A stretch of 64,000 nt of DNA from an uncultured Bacillota bacterium (GTDB lineage: Bacteria; Bacillota_I; Bacilli_A; RF39; UBA660). Below, in pieces: positions 2,057 through 40,611 of the stretch (positions are counted from its first letter, which is position 1; the number at the start of each line of letters is the position of its first letter). The stretch lies in assembly GCA_905212975.1 (NCBI GenBank), contig CAJMGO010000007.1:1699-65698 (forward strand), written 5' to 3'. A program made the translations under genes and the position numbers. A model generated the notes under the pieces. That model saw only the letters and a program-made list of their open reading frames with translations. It ran no database searches and was not told the origin of the DNA.

Positions 2057-2875
2057 ATGAATGAAATAAAAGAATATACAACAAAATTATTTGAAGATAT
2101 AAAACATATAGATGAACAAGATAATGAATATTGGTTAGCAAGAGAATTACAAAAAGTTTTAAGATATAATCAGTGGCGAAGTATAAATGATTTAATTGAA
2201 AGAGCTAAAGTTGCTTGTAAAGAAAGTAATAATAACGAAGATGATCATTTTGCGTTACAACGCAAAATGATAAAATTAGCAAAAGGTGCAACAAGAAAAG
2301 TTATAGATTATAAATTATCTAGATATGCATGTTATTTAATAGTAATGAATGGTAATCCTAGGAAAGACATTATAGCTTTAGGACAAACATATTTTGCCAT
2401 TCAAACAAGAAAGCAGGAATTATCAGAAAAAGAGTATAATAATCTTACTGAAGATGAGAAAAGACTATATCGAAGAAATCAAGCAAGAAAAGGTAATTAT
2501 AATTTAAATCAAACAGCAGTTAATAGTGGAGTAAAGGATTTGGCTAGATTTCATAATGCAGGATATAAAGGACTGTATAATGGAGAAACTGCAGATGATA
2601 TATTTAAAAGAAAGAAACTAAGATATAGAGAAGATATACTAGACAATATGGGTAGTGAAGAACTAGCTGATAATATATTCAGGATTGCTCAAACAGATGC
2701 CAAATTAAAAAGAGATAATGTAGATAATGAATATACGGCTAATAGTGTTCACTATGAAATAGGCAAGAAAGTAAGAAAGATAATTGAAGACATGGGTGGA
2801 ATCATGCCAGAAAATTTACCAATTCCAGATAAAAGTTTAAAAGAATTAGAAAAAGAAACTAAAAATAATAAGTGA
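2057..2875 (+). CDS. DinD-family protein (DNA-damage-inducible protein D-like)
   Basis: 272 aa. Motifs LSRYACYL, GQTYFAIQTRKQEL, DEKRL, NMGSEELADNIFR, TDAKLKRD and GGIMPENLPIPD match enterobacterial DinD as I recall it. An RBS lies 8 nt upstream. Confidence 0.6.
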   Translation: MNEIKEYTTKLFEDIKHIDEQDNEYWLARELQKVLRYNQWRSINDLIERAKVACKESNNNEDDHFALQRKMIKLAKGATRKVIDYKLSRYACYLIVMNGNPRKDIIALGQTYFAIQTRKQELSEKEYNNLTEDEKRLYRRNQARKGNYNLNQTAVNSGVKDLARFHNAGYKGLYNGETADDIFKRKKLRYREDILDNMGSEELADNIFRIAQTDAKLKRDNVDNEYTANSVHYEIGKKVRKIIEDMGGIMPENLPIPDKSLKELEKETKNNK

Positions 2876-2954
2876 AACATTATATAATTAATATGGCAAT
2901 AAACAGTTGTTAAATTAGCTGCTTTTCTTTGCTTAAATTCTTATACATAAACGT

Positions 2955-3530
2955 ATGCTACCACATGGTGATTATGATTATATTGGCGAGGCTGTAAATC
3001 TTTTTAATATTTTGAAAGTTAAAAAAGTAGTCTTTAACTGTGGGGAGTTTAATACTTTAGAATCTAGTTTAATAAAAGTTTTAGAAGCAAAAAAATTTCA
3101 TATCAGTCATGTATTAATAAACTTGGTATTGATAACTACCAATTAAACTTTTTAAATGCAAAAGTATTTTGTGATGAAAATAATAATAGTAATGTTATTT
3201 ATACAGATTTTAATGATATAAGTTTATGTTTATGGAATATGCGGGAATTGAACAAGAAAAAGATATTTTAGATAAGTATAACTTAGCAAATATTGAAGTA
3301 TTAAAAGTAGACATCATGGGAGTAAGACAAGTAGTAGTAAAGAGTTTATAGATGAAATAAATCCAAATTATTCCATTATTAGTGTTGGCAAAAACAACAG
3401 ATAAGGTCATCCCAATAAAGAAGTATTAAATAATTTGAGTGATTCAAAAATTTATAGAACGGATCAAGAGGGTAGTATCATGTTTAAGATTAGGAATAAT
3501 AAATTAAAAATAAAGACTTGTAGTTCGTAG
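2955..3530 (+). pseudogene. Decayed duplicate of the comEC 3' region (copy A): HGDYDYIGEAVNLF ... YRTDQEGSIMFKIRNNKLKIKTCSS, with several frameshifts and stops
   Basis: About 70-75% amino-acid identity to ComEC residues about 395-586 when read across three frames. Nt 3450-3530 are nearly identical to 1960-2040. ORF-track entries 2955..3146(+) and 3210..3410(-) are fragments or artefacts of this. Confidence 0.8.
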
Positions 3531-3535
3531 AAAAA

Positions 3536-3554
3536 GTGTCGCAAAATGCGACAC
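3536..3554. repeat. Perfect GC-rich inverted repeat GTGTCGCA-aaa-TGCGACAC at the module-1 junction
   Basis: Read directly. The 8-bp arms are unusual in a 26% GC context. It sits immediately after the comEC-copy stop (3528-3530). Confidence 0.7.
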
Positions 3555-3574
3555 AATTAAGAAAGAAGTTAGAT

Positions 3575-4483
3575 ATGAATTATTATGATCAAATAAAAGG
3601 ATTATTAATAAGCAACGAAGTATATAAGAAAGTAAAGGATTATAGTAAGAACAAGAGTGATGTTGAAACATATTATAATGTTGGAAAGTTAATTATTGAA
3701 GCCCAAGGTGGAGAAAAAAGAGCTAAATATGGCGATGGTTTAATAAAAGAATATTCACAAAGATTAATAATAGAATTAAATGATAAAAAATATAGTTATA
3801 GAAATCTTATGAATATGAGAAAATTTTATTTGTTATTTAGAGATAAAAAAGTGAACGCGCTGCGTTCACAATTGAGTTGGAGCCATTATCGTGAATTACT
3901 ATCAATTAAAAATTTTGATGAAATAATATATTATATAAATTTAGCTATATCAAATAGTCTTGGATATAGAGAGTTAGCAACAAGAATAAAGAATAATGAA
4001 TATAAAAGACTACCAATTGAAACTAAAAATAAATTGATTCTTGATGATAAACTTGAAGTAAAAGATTTGGTGCCAAATCCTATACTAATTAGAAATAAAA
4101 ATAATATTGAAATAGTTACTGAGAAAGCATTACATAATTTAATATTAGAAGATATTGAATCATTTATGAAAGACCTTGGGAATTCATTTAGTTTTATTGG
4201 TAGCAAATATAAAATCAAAATAGGTGACAGAAATCACTATATTGATTTATTGCTTTTCAATATAAAATACAATTGTTATGTAGTAGTTGAATTAAAAGTA
4301 ACAGAGTTTAAGGTAGAATATATTGCGCAAGTTCAAAAATATATGAATTATATAGATAAAAATGTAAAAGAAATAAGTAATAATTCTACTATTGGAATAT
4401 TAATATGTAAGAGAGAAAATAAATTTGTTATAGAATATTGTTCAGATGAAAGAATTGCTGTTAGAGAATATGAATTAGTGTGA
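3575..4483 (+). CDS. DUF1016 / YhcG-like PD-(D/E)xK nuclease family protein (alternative GTG start at 3536)
   Basis: The LSWSHYRELL motif is typical of the DUF1016 N-domain. The C-terminal IDLLLFN...CYVVVELK is a D...E-x-K nuclease core. The MNYY start matches the paralogous remnant at 5525. Confidence 0.75.
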   Translation: MNYYDQIKGLLISNEVYKKVKDYSKNKSDVETYYNVGKLIIEAQGGEKRAKYGDGLIKEYSQRLIIELNDKKYSYRNLMNMRKFYLLFRDKKVNALRSQLSWSHYRELLSIKNFDEIIYYINLAISNSLGYRELATRIKNNEYKRLPIETKNKLILDDKLEVKDLVPNPILIRNKNNIEIVTEKALHNLILEDIESFMKDLGNSFSFIGSKYKIKIGDRNHYIDLLLFNIKYNCYVVVELKVTEFKVEYIAQVQKYMNYIDKNVKEISNNSTIGILICKRENKFVIEYCSDERIAVREYELV

Positions 4484-22751: not shown

Positions 22752-23540
22752 ATGAAACTATATCTTGATTTGTTATTTTTTTTGAATTTTAGTTTTGATT
22801 CTATTTTATTGTTTGCTACTTCATATATATTAAAGAGAAATACCTCTATAAAAAGGATTTTACTTGGTGGTATAGTAGGTGGATTGAGTATATTTATTCT
22901 ATTTTTTAGAATGAATTCTATTATGTTATTTTTTATTAAAATATTTATTAGCATATTAATGTGTTTAACTTCTTTTTCATATAAGAATTTGAAATATACA
23001 TTAAAAAATTTAATTTTCTTATATATGACAAGTATATTTTTAGGAGGGGCTCTATATCTTTTAAATATAAAATTTTCATATAAACAGAAAGGTTTGATTT
23101 TTTATCACAATCCTTTTTCTATAAATTGGATAGTTTTAATCATAATTACTCCTATAATTATATATATTTATATAAAGCAATTAAAATCTTTAAAAAGTGA
23201 TTACTCTAATTATTATAAAGTTGAGCTTGTTCTTAAAAATAAACTTAAATTAAAATATATAGGATTTTTAGATACAGGTAATAAACTAAAGGATCCATAC
23301 TTAAATAGATCTATAATAATTGTTGATGAGACTAAATTAAAAAATCTTACAATTGATAATTATTTGTTTGTACCAATAAATACAGTTTCAGGAAAAAGCT
23401 ATATAAAATGTATTCCTATAAAAGAAATTTATATAAATAATAAAAGAGTAAATAAAAAAGTTTTGCTTGGAATCAGTAAAAAGAAAATAAATATGGATGG
23501 TATTGATTGTATTTTGAATTCAAAAATATTGGAGGGATAA
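22752..23540 (+). CDS. spoIIGA: Sigma-E processing peptidase SpoIIGA
   Basis: Polytopic N-terminus and a GFLDTGN aspartic-protease motif. Directly upstream of sigE. Confidence 0.85.
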   Translation: MKLYLDLLFFLNFSFDSILLFATSYILKRNTSIKRILLGGIVGGLSIFILFFRMNSIMLFFIKIFISILMCLTSFSYKNLKYTLKNLIFLYMTSIFLGGALYLLNIKFSYKQKGLIFYHNPFSINWIVLIIITPIIIYIYIKQLKSLKSDYSNYYKVELVLKNKLKLKYIGFLDTGNKLKDPYLNRSIIIVDETKLKNLTIDNYLFVPINTVSGKSYIKCIPIKEIYINNKRVNKKVLLGISKKKINMDGIDCILNSKILEG

Positions 23541-23541
23541 T

Positions 23542-24225
23542 ATGTTAAAAAAAATAATTAATTGGATATTAAGTGTATTTGATAATAATATTTATTTTGT
23601 TGGAGCTGTAGATAAGTTGCCACCACCACTTTCAAAAGAAGAAGAAACTCGCCTTGTACTGTTAAGTCAGGATGGAGATTTGATGGCTAGAAATAAACTA
23701 ATAGAACATAATTTACGACTTGTTGTATTTTTATCTAAAAAATATGAAAATACCGGCTTAGAATTAGAGGATTTAGTTAGTATAGGCACTCTTGGTCTTA
23801 TTAAAGCTGTAAAGACATATAGACTTGATAAAAATATTAAATTAGCAACATATGCATCTAGGTGTATAGAAAATGAGATATTAATGGATTTAAGAAAAAA
23901 TAAAAAAAGAAGAAGTGAAATAAGCTTGGAGGATAGTTTAAGTTATGACTCTGAAGGAAATGAATTAAGACTAGAAGATATTTTAGGTACTGAAGATGAT
24001 ATTGTTACTAAAAATATTGAACAAGAACAAGAAAAAAAATTATTGATAAAAGAGATAAATGATTTGAATGAAAGAGATAGAAAAATAATGATAATGAGAT
24101 ATGGTTTATTTAATACAAAAGAAGTTACACAAAAAGATGTAGCTGAAATGCTTGGAATAAGTCAATCTTATATTTCTAGAATAGAAAAAAAAGTTATAAA
24201 AAAACTAAAAGAGGTTATAAAATAA
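23542..24225 (+). CDS. sigE: RNA polymerase sporulation sigma factor SigE (pro-sigma-E)
   Basis: Pro-sequence YFVGAVDKLPPPLS. Sigma-70 regions 2 and 4. Position after spoIIGA. Confidence 0.9.
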   Translation: MLKKIINWILSVFDNNIYFVGAVDKLPPPLSKEEETRLVLLSQDGDLMARNKLIEHNLRLVVFLSKKYENTGLELEDLVSIGTLGLIKAVKTYRLDKNIKLATYASRCIENEILMDLRKNKKRRSEISLEDSLSYDSEGNELRLEDILGTEDDIVTKNIEQEQEKKLLIKEINDLNERDRKIMIMRYGLFNTKEVTQKDVAEMLGISQSYISRIEKKVIKKLKEVIK

Positions 24226-24302
24226 TCTTTTTTTCTTTTTTTGTATTGAATTGAATTGAAAAAAATGTTATATTATTGATGAAAAATAGGAGGATTTGAA
24301 AT

Positions 24303-25385
24303 ATGAAATGTTTAAAATGTGGTATGGAAAACAAAGAAGAAAGCAAATTTTGTTTAAATTGCGGTAATAATTTGGAACAACAATCTCAACAACAAAATAT
24401 GCAACAACCTGTACAACCACAACAAATGGTAAATCAACCAATGTATACTCAACCAGCATATAATCAACAACCTAAGAAAAGTAATAAAGGATTAATAATA
24501 GGATTATCAGTAGGTGGTGGAGTTTTATTATTAATAATAATTGTTGTAGTGATTGTATTTAATTTTATTCATGGCACAAAGAAAGCTTTGGATAATATTG
24601 AAGTAGATGATAATATAACAATTAATGGTAATAATGATAAAAAAGATACTAAAAATGATACTAAAAATGATAAAAAAACATCTGCTTATTCTATAGGAGA
24701 TCCAGTTACTTTAGTAGATGGAAGTAAATGGCATGTATTAGAATATGATGGTAAAGATAACATTACATTAATGCTAGATGAATTAGTAGTCGAAGAAACT
24801 GGATACGGTAAAAGTGCAGCTGCTGAAGATCAAAAATATGAGAATTCTTTAGTAAAAGACTACTTAGAAAATACATATAAACCAAAACTTGAAAAATCAC
24901 TAAAAGAAAATGGAGGAACAGTTAAAAATTTAACTGTAAGAACTTTAAAAGCTGAGGAATTTGTTGAAAAAAGTGGTGAAAGCTGGGGTGAAAAATGTTA
25001 CTTTGATGTAACAGCTTTTGGATCCATACGATACTATATTGAAAATGGAAAATTTAAAGAATATTATGTATATGAGGGATCAAAAAAATTAACAGATCAG
25101 GATAAATTTGTTTCAACACTTGCATTAACTGGAAATTTTTGGACAATGTCTAATATTGATGAAAGAACAAATGATGATTGTGAAGTAGCCTCAGAGAACC
25201 ATGGAGCATACTATATTAAAATTTCAAGTACTGAATATGATGGTAATTCATTTTGGTCTGATGCAAGATTATCAATAGATTGGGAAGCTTATTATACATC
25301 TAGTGGTGGTAAGGTTGGAAATAGTGGTACTTCTGCAGGTATTCGCCCTGTTATAGAAACGTCTATTAAAAATATTAAGAAATAA
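24303..25385 (+). CDS. Zinc-ribbon domain protein with a Gln-rich linker, one TM helix and an extracellular domain
   Basis: MKCLKCGMENKEESKFCLNCGNNL, then a Q-rich segment, then TM (LIIGLSVGGGVLLLIIIVVVIVF), then about 250 aa of extracytoplasmic sequence. Confidence 0.6.
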   Translation: MKCLKCGMENKEESKFCLNCGNNLEQQSQQQNMQQPVQPQQMVNQPMYTQPAYNQQPKKSNKGLIIGLSVGGGVLLLIIIVVVIVFNFIHGTKKALDNIEVDDNITINGNNDKKDTKNDTKNDKKTSAYSIGDPVTLVDGSKWHVLEYDGKDNITLMLDELVVEETGYGKSAAAEDQKYENSLVKDYLENTYKPKLEKSLKENGGTVKNLTVRTLKAEEFVEKSGESWGEKCYFDVTAFGSIRYYIENGKFKEYYVYEGSKKLTDQDKFVSTLALTGNFWTMSNIDERTNDDCEVASENHGAYYIKISSTEYDGNSFWSDARLSIDWEAYYTSSGGKVGNSGTSAGIRPVIETSIKNIKK

Positions 25386-25470: not shown

Positions 25471-25499
25471 TTGACAATGCCAAAATAATAGCATATAAT
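25471..25499 (+). promoter_or_regulatory. Sigma-A promoter TTGACA-17-TATAAT for the hrcA operon
   Basis: Perfect consensus hexamers with a 17-nt spacer. Confidence 0.7.
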
Positions 25500-25503
25500 T
25501 ATT

Positions 25504-25530
25504 TTAGCACTAGGAAATAGATAGTGCTAA
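25504..25530 (+). promoter_or_regulatory. CIRCE operator (TTAGCACTA-N9-TAGTGCTAA), the HrcA binding site
   Basis: Matches the CIRCE consensus TTAGCACTC-N9-GAGTGCTAA at 16 of 18 positions. Located between the promoter and hrcA. Confidence 0.85.
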
Positions 25531-25541
25531 AGAGGTGATTT

Positions 25542-26546
25542 ATGATCAACGAAAGACAAAGAGAAATTTTAAAACTTATTATTGAAGAATATATTAAAAC
25601 AGCAAAACCTGTAAGTTCTAAAGCTTTAATGGATACTTTAAATTGTTCGAGTGCAACAATAAGAAGTGAAATGAATTATTTAGAAGAAATTGGCTTGCTT
25701 GAGAAAACTCATATTTCATCTGGAAGGGTTCCAAGTGAAGAAGGATACAGATATTATGTAAATAATATAATGGTTCCAAAAGAGTTAAATGGTGATGATA
25801 TATTAAAACTTCAAACTATTTTTAAAAATAATTCGTTAGTATTAAGTGATGCAATTGTAAAAAGTCTTGAGATTGTTTCACAACTAACTAATTGTACTCT
25901 TATAGCATTAGGTGAGTCTTCAAAGCAAAACAAAGTTAGTAAAGTTGAAGTAATACCTGTAAATGAGAATAATGTTGTAGCAATTATAGTTACTGATAAG
26001 GGACATGTTGAAAATAGAAATGTTTATATAGAAGAAAAAATTTCTCCGTTAGAAATAAAACAAACAGTAGATTTAATAAATAAATATGTTGTTGGTACTC
26101 CACTTGATGAGGTTAATGCAAAGCTTGAATTTGAAGTTAAACCTGTAATTGGAGAAAATGTAAATTACCAAAGAAAATTATTTGATGCTTTTTGTAATTT
26201 TGTTAATGATGTCGCACATGATTCTAGTTATAAAGTAACTGGTGCTTCTAATATTTTGAAGCAGCCTGAATTTGATGATACAAGTAAAATAAGAGATATT
26301 TTAAGCAAATTTGAAGATAAAGAATTTATTAAAAGAATTAAAGCTGATAATAATGAGGTTAGTGTATATATAGGAAGTGAAACAGAATTTGATGATAATG
26401 TTTCGATTATAAAAACTAAATATTCTATTGATGGCGAAGAGGGAACTATTGCTTTAATAGGTCCTACAAGAATGGAATATGATAAAGTTACTACCTTACT
26501 TAATTACATAAAAGAAGAAATAGAACATATTGATAATAAGCAATAG
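25542..26546 (+). CDS. hrcA: Heat-inducible transcription repressor HrcA
   Basis: 334 aa. Winged-helix N-terminus. Position upstream of grpE-dnaK. Confidence 0.9.
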   Translation: MINERQREILKLIIEEYIKTAKPVSSKALMDTLNCSSATIRSEMNYLEEIGLLEKTHISSGRVPSEEGYRYYVNNIMVPKELNGDDILKLQTIFKNNSLVLSDAIVKSLEIVSQLTNCTLIALGESSKQNKVSKVEVIPVNENNVVAIIVTDKGHVENRNVYIEEKISPLEIKQTVDLINKYVVGTPLDEVNAKLEFEVKPVIGENVNYQRKLFDAFCNFVNDVAHDSSYKVTGASNILKQPEFDDTSKIRDILSKFEDKEFIKRIKADNNEVSVYIGSETEFDDNVSIIKTKYSIDGEEGTIALIGPTRMEYDKVTTLLNYIKEEIEHIDNKQ

Positions 26547-26555
26547 GAGGTAAAC

Positions 26556-27203
26556 ATGGAAGAAAAAGAAAAAAATTGTGCTTGTGAAAAAGATACATGT
26601 AAGTGTGAAAATGAATGCAAATGTGATGATAATTGCAATTGCAATAATACATGCAAGTGCGATGATGAATGTTGTAAAGAGAATTATGAACAACATGAAT
26701 GTAATAATGGTTGCAGTATAAAAGACCATGAAAAAAAGAAAAAGAAACATGATAAACATGAAGATAAATTAAATGAAGCTTTTAATAAAATAAGTGAACT
26801 TGAAGATAAACTTTTAAGAGAAAAAGCTGAAAGTGCAAATTATAGAAAAAGAAAAGAAGAAGAGGTTGCAAAATTACTTAAGTACTCTAGTGAGGATATT
26901 GTTAAAGAAATTTTACCAATAGCTGATAATTTTGAAAGAGCACTTAGTATGAGTGAAAATCAAGATGATGAATTTTTTAAAGGATTTAAGATGATATATT
27001 GTAATCTTATTTCTGTATTAGAAAAGAATCAAGTAAAGGCAATAGATGGCAATAATAAACCATTTGATCCAACTTATCATGAAGCTGTTTTAACAGAACA
27101 TAAAGATGGTGTTAAAGAGGGAATGGTTTTAGAAGTTATGCAAAAAGGTTATCTATTGAAAGATAAAGTTATTAGACCAGCAATGGTTAAGGTTAGTATT
27201 TAG
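26556..27203 (+). CDS. grpE: Nucleotide exchange factor GrpE with an unusual Cys-rich N-terminal extension
   Basis: The C-terminal 150 aa are canonical GrpE. The N-terminal about 55 aa contain 13 Cys in CxC/CxxxC repeats. RBS GGAGG lies 6 nt upstream of the ATG. Confidence 0.88.
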   Translation: MEEKEKNCACEKDTCKCENECKCDDNCNCNNTCKCDDECCKENYEQHECNNGCSIKDHEKKKKKHDKHEDKLNEAFNKISELEDKLLREKAESANYRKRKEEEVAKLLKYSSEDIVKEILPIADNFERALSMSENQDDEFFKGFKMIYCNLISVLEKNQVKAIDGNNKPFDPTYHEAVLTEHKDGVKEGMVLEVMQKGYLLKDKVIRPAMVKVSI

Positions 27204-29045
<1,842 letters not shown>

Positions 29046-29102
29046 TAATTAAGGTAGTGAAGTTCTAGTTTTCTAGAACTTTGCCTTTTATAAAGGAGAA
29101 AT

Positions 29103-30881
29103 ATGGAAAAGAATAAAATTGATAATAAATATAAGTGGGATTTAACTAAAATTATTAAAGATGATAATGAATTTGATAAAGTATATAATGAAGTTTTAGA
29201 ATTAGGTAAAAGTTTAAGTGAATATAAAGGCAAAATAGCTTTAAATAAAGATAATTTTAAATCATTTTTAGAACTAGATGAAAAATTAGATAGGTTATTT
29301 ACTAAACTTTATATATATGCTAATTTATATTGTGATTTAGATACTACAAATGAACATGGTAAAGTTTTAAAATTTAAAGTTGAAAAATTATCTGAAAAGG
29401 TAAATGATTATACTGTATTTGTTACTCCAGAATTATTAAGTAATGATATAGATGTATATTTTAAGTTTATTGAAGAGGATAAATCTTTAGAAAAATATAG
29501 ATTTGAAATAGAGCAAATATTTAGATATAAAAAACATACTTTATCTATTGAGGAAGAAAATATCATAAATCAATCAAGTAATGCTTTAGGTGTTGGTAGT
29601 GAAGTATTTTATAATTTAGATAATTCTGATATAAGACTTGGTAATATTATTTGTGATGGAAAAGAAGTAGAGCTTACTAATAGTAATTATATTAAATTTT
29701 TAAGTAATAAAGATAGAAATGTAAGAATACAAGCTTTTCAAAAATTATATGAATACTTTGCTAATCATAAAAATACATTAGCTGCTTGTTTAAAAGGTAA
29801 TGTTAAAGAAAATTGGTATATAAGTAAGGTAAGAGGATATAAAAGTCCTTTAAGTCAAAGTTTATATGCTGATTCTATAGATGAAAGTGTATATACTAAT
29901 TTAATTGATACTGTACATAAAAATTTAAATCTTATTTATGATTTTATGGAGGTAAGAAGAAAAGCTCTTAATTTAGATGAGTTACACATGTATGATATAT
30001 TTGTAAATTTATCTGATGGTATTGATAAAGATATTCCATTTGAAGAAGGTAAGAAAATAGTGTTGGAAGCATTAAAACCTCTTGGAGACAAATATATTAA
30101 TGATTTAAGTCAAGCTTTTACTAATAATTGGATTGATGTATATCCTGCTCGTGGTAAAAAATCTGGAGCTTATCAATGGGGATGTTATGACACAACTCCA
30201 TACGTGCTTTTGAATTATGAGAATACTGTTGATGATGTAAGTACTATGGCTCATGAATTAGGTCATGCTATGCATTCTTATTATTCAAATGAAAATCAAG
30301 ATTATATTTATTCTAATTATCCTATTTTTCTAGCCGAAATTGCTTCTACTGTAAATGAAATATTATTAAATGAATATTTGTATAGAAATGCAACAAGTAG
30401 GGAAGACAAAATTACTTATTTAGTAGATTTTCTAGATAAGGTAAGAACGACTATTGTAAGGCAAACTATGTTTGCTGAATTTGAAAAAATAATACATGAA
30501 AAAGAAAATGAAGGAGTTCCTTTAACGTCAGAAAAATTATGTAATATTTATTATGATTTAAATAAACTATATTTTGGACCAAATGTTGTAAGCGACGAAG
30601 AAATAAAATATGAATGGTCTAGAATACCTCATTTTTATACTTCATTTTATGTATATAAATACGCAACTGGATTATCTAGTGCTATAGCTTTAGCTTCAAA
30701 TATTTTAGATAATAAACCAAATGCTAAAGAAGCTTATTTAGAATTTTTATCTAGTGGTGGTAAAGACTATCCATTAAATATTTTAAAAAAAGCTGGAGTA
30801 GATATGACTAATCCAGAATCTATACAAATATCATTTGATTTGTTTAGTAAAAAGTTAGAAGAATTGAAAACTTTATTATAA
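29103..30881 (+). CDS. pepF: Oligoendopeptidase F (M3B family)
   Basis: 592 aa. HELGHAMH zinc motif. Typical PepF length. Confidence 0.8.
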   Translation: MEKNKIDNKYKWDLTKIIKDDNEFDKVYNEVLELGKSLSEYKGKIALNKDNFKSFLELDEKLDRLFTKLYIYANLYCDLDTTNEHGKVLKFKVEKLSEKVNDYTVFVTPELLSNDIDVYFKFIEEDKSLEKYRFEIEQIFRYKKHTLSIEEENIINQSSNALGVGSEVFYNLDNSDIRLGNIICDGKEVELTNSNYIKFLSNKDRNVRIQAFQKLYEYFANHKNTLAACLKGNVKENWYISKVRGYKSPLSQSLYADSIDESVYTNLIDTVHKNLNLIYDFMEVRRKALNLDELHMYDIFVNLSDGIDKDIPFEEGKKIVLEALKPLGDKYINDLSQAFTNNWIDVYPARGKKSGAYQWGCYDTTPYVLLNYENTVDDVSTMAHELGHAMHSYYSNENQDYIYSNYPIFLAEIASTVNEILLNEYLYRNATSREDKITYLVDFLDKVRTTIVRQTMFAEFEKIIHEKENEGVPLTSEKLCNIYYDLNKLYFGPNVVSDEEIKYEWSRIPHFYTSFYVYKYATGLSSAIALASNILDNKPNAKEAYLEFLSSGGKDYPLNILKKAGVDMTNPESIQISFDLFSKKLEELKTLL

Positions 30882-30900: not shown

Positions 30901-32016
30901 ATGGAAAAAAGAGATTATTATGAGGTCTTAGGCGTTGCTAAAACAGCAAGTCAAGATGAAATAAAATCAGCATTTAGAAAATTAGCAAAAAAATATCACC
31001 CTGATGTTTCAAAGGAACCAAATGCTGCTGAAAAATTTAAAGAAGCACAAGAAGCATATGCAGTATTATCTGACGAAGATAAGAGAAAACAATATGATCA
31101 ATATGGTCATGCTGCTTTTGATCAAATGAATGGAGCTCAAGGCGGTTATGATTTTTCTGGATTTGATTTTTCAGATATCTTTGATGATTTATTTGGTGGT
31201 GGATTTGGATTTTCTGGTTTTGGAGGTGGATCTAGATCAACAAGATCTAATTCCAGACAAAAAGGAAATGATTCTCTATTACATATGAATTTGACATTTG
31301 AAGAAGCTGTATTTGGATGTAAAAAAACAATTAATGTTGACATTGATGAAAAATGTGATGCTTGTGATGGATTAGGTGGACATGGAAAAAGTACATGTAA
31401 AACATGTCATGGAAGTGGCACTGTATCAAGACAACAATCAACTTTATTTGGTACATTTATGACAAAAACAACTTGTCCTGATTGTAAAGGTACTGGTTAT
31501 ACATTTGATACAAAATGTAGTAAATGTTCTGGTAAAGGAAGAAAAAGAGTTAATAAAAATCTTGATGTAAAAATACCTGCTGGTATAGATACTGGAAATA
31601 GATTAAGACTTGCAGGAAAAGGAGAAGCTGGTGTTAATGGTGGACCTAATGGTGATATTTATATTGAATTTAATGTAAAAGATCATCCTATTTACAAAAG
31701 AGATGATAAAGATATTTATTTAACTTTACCAATAACTATAACAGATGCAGTGTTGGGTGCTAAAAGAGATGTACCAACACTTGATGGTAGTGTTAAGTTA
31801 TCTATTCCAGAAGGATGCAAAACAGGAGATAAATTAAGAATAAAAGGAAAAGGTATTGAAGATGTCCAAGGTGGTAGACGTGGAGATATGTATGTTGTCC
31901 TTGAAATACAAGTACCAAAAAAATTATCTCGTGATCAAAAGAAATTGTTTGATGAATTATCTAAAACAGATTTAGAAGATTCAAGAGAATTTAAAAAAAT
32001 TAAAGAGTATTTATAA
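30901..32016 (+). CDS. dnaJ: Molecular chaperone DnaJ
   Basis: J domain (HPD), G/F-rich region, and four CxxCxGxG zinc-finger repeats. Confidence 0.95.
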
Positions 32017-39412: not shown

Positions 39413-39579
39413 TTTTTTTTTAAATTTATTAATAAAACATTGTATAAAATAATAAAATTTGGTATACTAATCATGGCTTTTTCAAATACACACATTATTG
39501 ATTTTTATGCCTAGTGCCTAAATGGTGGTAATAAAAAGAAGATATAATGGAGGAAAATAACAAAAGGAGGAATGAAAAT

Positions 39580-40611
39580 ATGGCAGTAGTGTCAATGAGT
39601 TATTTATTAGAAACTGGTGTTCACTTTGGTCATCAAACTAAAAGATGGAACCCAAAAATGAAAGAGTATATTTTTACATCAAGAGATGATATTTATATTA
39701 TCGATTTACAAAAAACAGCTAAAAAAATAGAGGAAGCATATGCAGCTTTAAATAAAATTGCAGCTGATGGTGGTAAAGTTTTATTTGTAGGTACAAGAAA
39801 ACAAGCACAAGAAGCAATTGTTGAAGAAGCTAAAAGAAGTGATTCTTACTATGTAGCTGAAAGATGGTTAGGTGGAACTTTAACAAACTTCAAAACTATC
39901 AGAAGAAGAATTAAAAGATTAGAAGATATCGAAAAAATGGAAAAAGATGGAACTTTCGATTTACTTCCAAAGAAAGAAGTAATTGGTATTAAGAAAGAAT
40001 ACGAAAAATTAAACAAAGTTTTATGTGGTATTCGTGAAATGACTAAATTACCTCAAGCTTTATATATAGTAGATCCTTCTAAAGAAGAAATTGCTATAAG
40101 AGAAGCTAGAAAATTAAATATTCCAGTATTTGGTATTGTAGATACAAATTGTGATCCAGATATGGTAGATTATGTAATTCCTGGAAATGATGATGCAATT
40201 CGTGCAGTTAAATTAATTACAGGTGTTATGGCTAATGCTATTGTTGAAGCAAATGGTGGTAAAGTTGTTGATTATGTAAAAGAAGACGACAAAAATGGTG
40301 CTGAAATAATGGAAAAAGCATTAGAAACAGTAAAAAGAAAAGAAGATAGAAATAAACCAAGATTTGAAAAGAAACCATTTAACAAAGATAATAAAAGAGA
40401 ATTTAAAAAAGAATTCAAAAAAGAAGAAAAAGTAGAAAAAGAAACTAAAAAAGTTGAAAAAGTAGAAAAAGTTGAAAAAGTTGAAAAAAAAGAAGAAGCC
40501 AAAGATTTAACTAAATTAACTGTAGCTGAATTAAGAGATTTAGCTAAGAGTAAAGAAGTTAAAGGATACTCAACAATGAAAAAAGCTGAATTATTAGATG
40601 CTTTAAAATAA
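39580..40611 (+). CDS. rpsB: 30S ribosomal protein S2 with a Lys/Glu-repeat plus Rho_N-like C-terminal extension
   Basis: Canonical S2 core up to about residue 232, then about 110 extra residues. Start at the MAVVSM ATG with a GGAGG RBS. Confidence 0.9.

Follow-up and report, generated by a model that had tools for sequence, protein, structure and literature searches.

A cysteine-repeat tail of metallothionein-like composition at the N terminus of GrpE in uncultured gut Bacilli

Canonical bacterial GrpE, which serves DnaK as its nucleotide-exchange factor, begins with 40–50 unstructured, charged residues. Why does the GrpE encoded in the stretch of DNA analysed here (64 kb from an uncultured Bacillota bacterium, GC content 25.6%; hereafter the window) begin instead with an array of cysteines? 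A first-pass annotation of this DNA had drawn attention to 13 Cys in 55 residues, arranged as CxC and CxxxC. The protein, which starts MEEKEKNCACEKDTCKCENECKCDDNCNCNNTCKCDDECCKENYEQHECNNGCS (translation of 26556–27203), is indeed Cys-rich at its N terminus, but the correct count is 14, all within the first 53 residues (positions 8, 10, 15, 17, 21, 23, 27, 29, 33, 35, 39, 40, 49 and 53). The described pattern held, with five CxC, five CxxxC and one CC motif and no CxxC. Cys accounts for 0.96% of residues across the window (12,754 codons in 28 other open reading frames (ORFs)), and the chance probability of at least 14 Cys in 53 residues against that background is approximately 1e-16. Cys makes up 26% of the tail, which also contains 15 acidic residues, a single His and, as its sole aromatic residue, one Tyr. 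Comparative sequence evidence, set out below, indicates that this tail is real, translated, under selection and widespread in an uncultured gut lineage. The parts of the gene are as follows.

26545–26550, + strand: Shine–Dalgarno sequence AGGAGG of grpE, overlapping the hrcA stop codon (read from the sequence)
26556–27203, + strand: grpE, full ORF, 215 amino acids plus stop (translation, Pfam and PDB matches)
26556–26717, + strand: Cys-repeat tail, residues 1–54, with 14 Cys as CxC and CxxxC and acidic or Asn spacers
26631–26645, + strand: AATTGC micro-repeat, 2.5 copies, encoding N26-C27-N28-C29-N30 (Tandem Repeats Finder (TRF))
26718–26771, + strand: Lys/His-rich linker (IKDHEKKKKKHDKHEDKL) and start of the long stalk helix (predicted helix from residue 55)
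26721–27197, + strand: GrpE domain, residues 56–214, comprising stalk helix, helical bundle and beta domain (Pfam PF01025, 4ANI and structure prediction)

Codons 2–131 of grpE contain no in-frame ATG, GTG or TTG, codon 132 lies deep within the GrpE domain, and the in-frame stop immediately 5′ of the gene is the TAG of hrcA (26544–26546). With no start between codons 1 and 132 and a stop directly upstream, the tail must be translated, and the sequence predicts that a functional GrpE cannot be made without it. The strong ribosome-binding site that had been proposed is present, as AGGAGG separated from the ATG by 5 nt rather than as GGAGG 6 nt upstream. A downstream start and an assembly error, the two explanations that the first-pass annotation had named as fatal to its claim, are thus both excluded, the former by the absent alternative start and the latter by recurrence of the tail in many independent assemblies. 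One NCBI assembly and three independent Logan assemblies each encode a 98%-identical protein flanked by the same genes, and the 90% identity cluster holds 67 member sequences from independent assemblies, some of them present on hundreds of contigs.

Beyond the tail, the protein is a bona fide GrpE by profile, architecture and operon context, as had been claimed. Residues 56–214 matched Pfam PF01025 (E = 6.3e-50), and the core matched PDB entries 4ANI (E = 1e-31) and 1DKG (E = 5e-21); in every solved GrpE structure the aligned part begins at residue 56 or later. AlphaFold2, run with a 46-sequence alignment, placed helices at residues 55–111, 113–132 and 139–157, followed by six strands, with a predicted local distance difference test (pLDDT) score of about 80 in the core, and assigned residues 1–54 a pLDDT below 50 and no secondary structure. 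Like the canonical proteins of Escherichia coli (1DKG), Geobacillus kaustophilus (4ANI) and Thermus thermophilus (3A6M), this GrpE has an ordinary domain, and it sits in an ordinary Firmicute hrcA–grpE–dnaK–dnaJ operon; unlike them, it has a Cys-repeat module filling the N-terminal tail position. K62, D66, K67 and K71 are invariant or nearly so in the homolog alignment, and the Lys-rich stretch of the linker is also present in relatives without Cys. One core cysteine, Cys149 (27000–27002; motif KMIYCNL in the helical region), is nearly invariant across the clade.

To see which residues of the tail are maintained, we compared the window grpE codon by codon with an 89%-identical ortholog (L085, tail at L085:1399–1560). 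Among the 14 tail Cys codons, 8 were identical, 6 had changed synonymously and none was replaced; among the 40 tail spacer codons, 16 were identical, 4 synonymous and 20 replaced (Fisher p = 7.6e-4 for replacement of Cys versus spacer codons). The 159 core codons comprised 145 identical, 12 synonymous and 2 replaced. In the 15 listed sequences of the 90% cluster, all tail substitutions fell in spacers and none at Cys, and Cys number changed by in-frame deletion only, giving within-species length variants with 14, 13 or 10 Cys. Because replacements spared all 14 Cys codons and struck half of the spacers, selection acts on the cysteines. The codon data thus indicate purifying selection on the cysteines, and essentially on them alone, within the tail, which on sequence grounds marks it as a ligand array and not a folded domain.

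At the DNA level, TRF detected only the 6-nt, 2.5-copy micro-repeat in the tail, and the Cys codons are a mixture of TGT and TGC, two observations that mark the repeat as old and degenerate in its DNA and speak against recent expansion by slippage. The tail uses 6 TGC and 8 TGT codons, against 15 TGC and 108 TGT in the 28 other ORFs (Fisher p = 0.009), an over-use of TGC for which optimised translation or the avoidance of perfect repeats in the DNA could account. Among the length variants, those of 213 amino acids lack one NC at the position of the AATTGC unit, one such variant being found on 211 contigs, and a 203-amino-acid variant lacks 12 residues. The tail DNA also diverges faster than the core even synonymously (6 of 14 Cys codons versus 12 of 157 core codons with identical amino acids, p = 0.001), which suggests recombination or replacement, or a locally raised mutation rate.

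Is the tail peculiar to this gene? It had been presented as an unusual single-gene feature, a view that the homologs contradict: 119 of the 120 best homologs carry Cys-repeat N termini with 5–20 Cys each, making such tails the norm in a large uncultured lineage. In 117 homolog tails, 1,313 Cys–Cys intervals were dominated by spacings of 2 residues (637) and 4 residues (436), with a spacing of 3 residues in 19, and the unit is C-x-C-[E/D/N/G]3. These tails are composed of 21% Glu, 21% Cys, 17% Lys, 10% Asn and 9% Asp, with hydrophobic and aromatic residues almost nil.

Comparing GrpE N termini in related genomes had been suggested as a check, and it was borne out in a survey of 80 genomes of uncultured low-GC gut Bacilli, one per species. 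Ligand-rich tails were found in 52 of the 80 species: 41 Cys tails, 7 Cys- and His-rich tails (for example, HEHKHEECKCHEHHEHKHEECKCHE) and 4 His-rich tails. The remaining 28 species have plain Lys/Glu tails. In a rough neighbour-joining tree of the core, Cys tails dominate one large subclade with scattered losses, and His-containing tails arise at three or four separate places. The Cys- and His-rich tails are those of loci L017 (with HEHKHEECKCHE repeats), L019, L032, L033, L040, L047 and L050, and the His-rich ones those of L053 (22 His), L016, L029 and L031; in most of these loci GrpE starts near position 3001. Both kinds are reminiscent of the Ni/Zn-binding tails of HspA or Hpn. The hosts of the related GrpEs are uncultured gut metagenome-assembled genomes (MAGs) of 25–33% GC, labelled Bacilli, Tenericutes, Mycoplasmatota or Erysipelotrichaceae, together with Acholeplasma sp. 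CAG:878.

We then asked how far the tail is metallothionein (MT)-like, as it had first been described. Its composition and motif pattern fall within the range by which MTs are operationally recognised (approximately 15–30% Cys; CxC, CxxC or CC motifs; few aromatic residues), and it shares with them a Cys content of about 26%, CxC/CxxxC spacing, near absence of aromatic residues and a lack of predicted structure without metal. Plant type 1 MTs have a CxCxxxCxCxxxCxC N-domain and animal MTs a CxC-rich beta-domain. Unlike MTs, which are stand-alone polypeptides of less than about 10 kDa, the tail forms the first 54 residues of a 215-amino-acid GrpE; its spacers are strongly acidic and its repeat number is highly variable. 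The known bacterial MTs (SmtA/BmtA, MymT and Pseudomonas PmtA) differ from it in architecture. The window tail matched no recognised MT family in Pfam at E-values up to 10, and that search together with a PDB search ruled out filing it under a known family. DnaJ-type or zinc-ribbon knuckles were likewise absent from the tail, which has no CxxC and no zinc-finger Pfam match. On sequence criteria, then, the tail is MT-like by composition and lies outside every recognised MT family.

The same repeat also appears on other proteins. A search with the tail profile returned one truncated GrpE at E ≤ 1e-3, and at E ≤ 10 it brought out the tails of ferredoxins, whose E-values are individually non-significant, so that the link rests on reading of the sequences, in which the repeat is unmistakable. 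There are 13 of these small single-cluster ferredoxins (Fer4_13/Fer4_15), each with a 56-residue core and a C-terminal tail of 33–70 residues that contains 10–19 Cys with the same period. An irregular sub-motif, CxCT/SE-x-NKCS-x-x-CxC, is common to the ferredoxin tails and some GrpE tails. The carriers besides GrpE (P0137–P0158; ferredoxin loci at L208:6001–6276, L209:2014–2325 and L210:5488–5844) further include a DUF1292 protein with an internal insert of the repeat (P0147) and two short stand-alone ORFs (P0140, 65 amino acids, and P0141, 77 amino acids), the second of which has a hydrophobic N-terminal segment, a hint of export or anchoring in a membrane. The GC content of the ferredoxin contigs is 23.4%, and their conserved neighbourhood includes yunB, yutH, a NifU-like gene, cotJB/cotJC and a P-type ATPase; by this GC content and these sporulation genes, the organisms with tailed ferredoxins are of the same kind as that of the window. 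These sequences favour a carrier-independent role for the repeat, such as metal or thiol buffering, over a regulatory switch specific to GrpE. No other Cys-repeat ORF was found in the window or in the flanks of 87 GrpE loci. A tail-only phmmer search of 1.84 billion representative proteins returned only the representative of its own cluster, a result that says nothing about absence elsewhere, given that composition correction leaves HMMER nearly blind to the Cys repeat. A metagenome DNA scan for (TGY NNN TGY N9)x4 was uninformative, since its matches were dominated by microsatellites such as (TG)n, most of them eukaryote-like.

How the tail is likely to be expressed can be read from its operon, which has class I heat-shock order: promoter, CIRCE (controlling inverted repeat of chaperone expression), hrcA, grpE, dnaK, hairpin, M3 oligoendopeptidase and dnaJ.

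25471–25499, + strand: sigma-70-type promoter-like site, TTGACA-17-TATAAT, upstream of hrcA (12/12 consensus match only)
25504–25530, + strand: CIRCE operator, the HrcA binding site, inverted repeat TTAGCACT-N-AGTGCTAA (pattern match)
25542–26546, + strand: hrcA, 334 amino acids (Pfam HrcA, E = 4.7e-51)
27219–29045, + strand: dnaK, 608 amino acids (Pfam HSP70, E = 2.4e-247)
29057–29084, + strand: terminator-like hairpin 3′ of dnaK (pattern match only)
29103–30881, + strand: oligoendopeptidase F-like (pepF-like) M3 peptidase between dnaK and dnaJ (Pfam Peptidase_M3, M3_N)
30901–32016, + strand: dnaJ, 371 amino acids, with J domain, CxxCxGxG zinc-finger domain and C-terminal domain (Pfam)

The CIRCE element has two mismatches to TTAGCACTC-N9-GAGTGCTAA, with 0.01 matches expected by chance, and the promoter-like site directly 5′ of it fits a class I heat-shock promoter. 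A consensus promoter together with CIRCE implies that the operon is stress-induced. The placement of the M3 peptidase between dnaK and dnaJ is kept in relatives.

What might such a tail do? The reading that we favour, and to which we give an even chance, is that it is a lineage-specific MT-like metal-thiolate tail on a co-chaperone under CIRCE/HrcA control, with a role in buffering or storage. Residues 1–54 constitute a lineage-specific Cys-repeat module, of consensus (C-x-C-[E/D/N/G]3)n, placed on the normally disordered N-terminal tail before the stalk helix. Its thiolates would bind soft metal ions in clusters, most probably Zn(II) and/or Cu(I) and possibly Cd(II), and 14 Cys per chain would accommodate roughly 4–5 divalent ions. 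Since GrpE forms a parallel dimer, two tails with 28 Cys would emerge side by side. The Cys density, the CxC/CxxxC spacing, the absence of CxxC, the scarcity of aromatic residues, the lack of predicted structure in the ligand-free state, the free spacers and the variable copy number all fit a metal-thiolate module. Cys, Cys/His and purely His tails at the same position have metal ligation in common, which argues for metal binding over pure redox chemistry, and the presence of the module on unrelated abundant proteins, together with within-species length variation, argues for a generic sink, buffer or donor over a dedicated switch. Under CIRCE/HrcA control, the amount of tail would rise with protein misfolding, metal stress included; by analogy with the titration of HrcA by GroEL in Bacillus, the response of the operon would cover metal-induced misfolding. 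The abundant co-chaperone could in this way double as a metal sink, buffer or donor, much as the HspA tail does for nickel. More speculatively, a metal-folded tail, or loss of metal on oxidation, might tune substrate release from DnaK.

The closest functional precedent is HspA of Helicobacter pylori, a GroES whose His/Cys-rich C-terminal tail binds Ni and functions in storage, in detoxification and in the maturation of hydrogenase, so that the concept has more precedent than had been implied. Like HspA, GrpE is an essential heat-shock co-chaperone with a terminal, low-complexity, ligand-rich tail that is dispensable for chaperone function and restricted to a lineage, and the Cys/His-rich tails of sister lineages (HEHKHEECKCHE repeats) resemble it in composition. 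The variable copy number (5–20 Cys) and repeated loss make the GrpE tail behave like an HspA-type metal-storage tail and unlike a fixed-geometry switch. The two differ in chaperone system (Hsp70 rather than GroES), in terminus (N rather than C) and in regulation (predicted CIRCE/HrcA rather than NikR). They differ also in ligand: the window tail is Cys-rich with a single His, and Cys/His- or His-rich tails occur in the orthologs of 11 of the 80 species. An almost pure Cys tail should favour Zn, Cu and Cd over Ni.

Several observations weigh against a metal-thiolate function. The tail is dispensable for GrpE function, being absent from 28 of the 80 related species, and its spacers are unusually acidic for an MT. 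Pfam gave nothing for the window tail and a best E-value of 0.047 on the His/Cys tail of a relative, and the PDB sequence search of the tail returned no significant match, the best MT match having E = 1.6. The low AlphaFold confidence in the tail is uninformative because the program is unable to model metal clusters. Lastly, the ferredoxin fusions could point instead to iron or Fe–S chemistry.

We also weighed other explanations. A broader variant of the metal-thiolate reading, which we regard as doubtful, would make the repeat an undescribed promiscuous (CxC-xxx)n module that has spread in very-low-GC, spore-forming gut Bacilli to several abundant housekeeping proteins, at the GrpE N terminus, the ferredoxin C terminus and the interior of a DUF1292 protein. 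On GrpE it would render the Hsp70 exchange factor responsive to metal and/or redox state, with metal loading or oxidation of the paired tails altering DnaK substrate release, and so give the bacterial Hsp70 cycle a new input next to temperature. A redox or thiol switch is in our judgement unlikely. Here the tail, possibly Zn-loaded, would sense oxidants, and disulfides with or without Zn release would change GrpE-driven nucleotide or substrate release so that DnaK holds substrates in oxidative stress; alternatively, the tail might be a sacrificial protein-thiol buffer in an anaerobe. Analogous cases are Hsp33 with its Zn centre, vertebrate GrpEL2 with Cys87, and yeast Mge1. GrpE proteins are established stress sensors, as thermosensors in bacteria and through the Cys87 disulfide redox sensor of GrpEL2, which shows that a member of the family can be redox-regulated. 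The bacterial GrpE N-terminal tail is also reported to assist DnaK substrate release, although the pseudo-substrate model for this has no structural proof. The cysteines are kept by selection, and the hosts are gut organisms, presumably oxygen-sensitive. The Hsp33 Zn centre, GrpEL2 Cys87 and Mycobacterium tuberculosis Ruc are likewise Cys-based, in some cases Zn-bound, links between chaperones and stress. These, however, have few fixed cysteines, whereas the GrpE tail is a variable repeat of 5–20 Cys with frequent indels and losses, unlike a defined switch. It has no CxxC, the usual redox-active pair (the corresponding spacing of 3 makes up 19 of the 1,313 intervals), and accordingly lacks the Hsp33 arrangement CxCx(27–32)CxxC. 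Sister lineages moreover use His-rich tails that are unable to sense redox, and the presence of the module on ferredoxins and other carriers shows that it is not tailored to the DnaK cycle.

Iron chemistry, in which the repeats would bind Fe(II)/Fe(III) or assemble Fe–S clusters and serve as an iron/sulfide store or a DnaK-linked cluster carrier, seems to us improbable. Mitochondrial Mge1 is the exchange factor for the Fe–S chaperone Ssq1 and offers an analogy. The identical module sits at the C terminus of ferredoxins of the single-cluster [4Fe-4S]/[3Fe-4S] type, one tailed ferredoxin gene has a NifU-like gene about 5 kb away, and the tail gave a weak, non-significant PDB match to an NCOA4 fragment. 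The CxC/CxxxC period is nevertheless no known Fe–S binding pattern, the CxxCxxC...CP motif is absent from the tail, the His-rich variants are better suited to Ni or Zn, and no Fe–S assembly gene adjoins grpE. We consider it very improbable that the repeats are a disulfide cross-linking or assembly tag driving covalent multimerisation or deposition, for example in sporulation. Spore coat proteins are often Cys-rich, spoIIGA–sigE lies directly upstream of the operon both here and in a 59%-identical relative, and yunB, yutH and cotJB/cotJC accompany the ferredoxins; but no structural role is known for GrpE or ferredoxin, both of them soluble, cytoplasmic proteins, the strongly acidic tail lacks a signal sequence, and His-rich alternatives cannot cross-link. 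That the tail has no function at all, being a neutral low-complexity expansion, an assembly error or a mis-called start, is scarcely credible. The DNA micro-repeats, the in-frame indel variants and the 28 related species without such a tail speak for it. The comparative data largely refute this explanation: no other start codon occurs ahead of codon 132 and the frame is closed by a stop immediately 5′ of the gene, many independent assemblies contain the sequence, 0 of 14 Cys against 20 of 40 spacer codons were replaced while 6 Cys codons changed synonymously, and the pattern is kept in 119 of 120 homologs.

If the metal-thiolate reading is true, a selected MT-like tail would add metal handling to the Hsp70 system, with sister clades His-rich at the same position. 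The extra inputs known for GrpE are temperature in bacteria and one redox cysteine in vertebrate GrpEL2. In the Hsp60 system a single case has been well studied, H. pylori HspA, and it is the closest parallel. The tail would also define a new class of bacterial MT-like sequence in abundant uncultured gut bacteria; to our knowledge, few bacterial MTs are known. Its occurrence on ferredoxins suggests that metal or thiol buffering has been added by decorating abundant proteins and not through dedicated MTs. The claim that characterised GrpEs offer no counterpart stands: a 2025 review of GrpE-like exchange factors covers nucleotide exchange, thermosensing, mitochondrial import and GrpEL2 redox sensing without using the words metal or zinc, and the solved structures align only beyond the tail. 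Neither a Cys-rich GrpE nor ferredoxin tails of this kind were described in the literature searched, whose coverage was incomplete, so that this is not proof of novelty.

Elsewhere in the window, an Rfam scan gave no match near grpE. Directly upstream of the operon, 22752–25385 encodes spoIIGA, a sigma-E-like factor and then a zinc-ribbon protein of 360 amino acids in which a Gln-rich segment and a hydrophobic stretch occur, and the spoIIGA and sigma-E-like genes keep this synteny in the 59%-identical relative. The window organism thus looks like a spore former, although GrpE relatives carry Tenericutes or Bacilli MAG labels. Beside comEC, a BRO-N domain protein and a YhcG/DUF1016 PDDEXK nuclease (2057–4483) may be a mobile-element remnant or a defence-related locus. 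Ribosomal protein S2 (39547–40611) is 354 amino acids long, about 100 above the usual length, with a Rho_N (SAP-like) domain (residues 320–353, Pfam E = 2.3e-8) at the end of its C-terminal extension.

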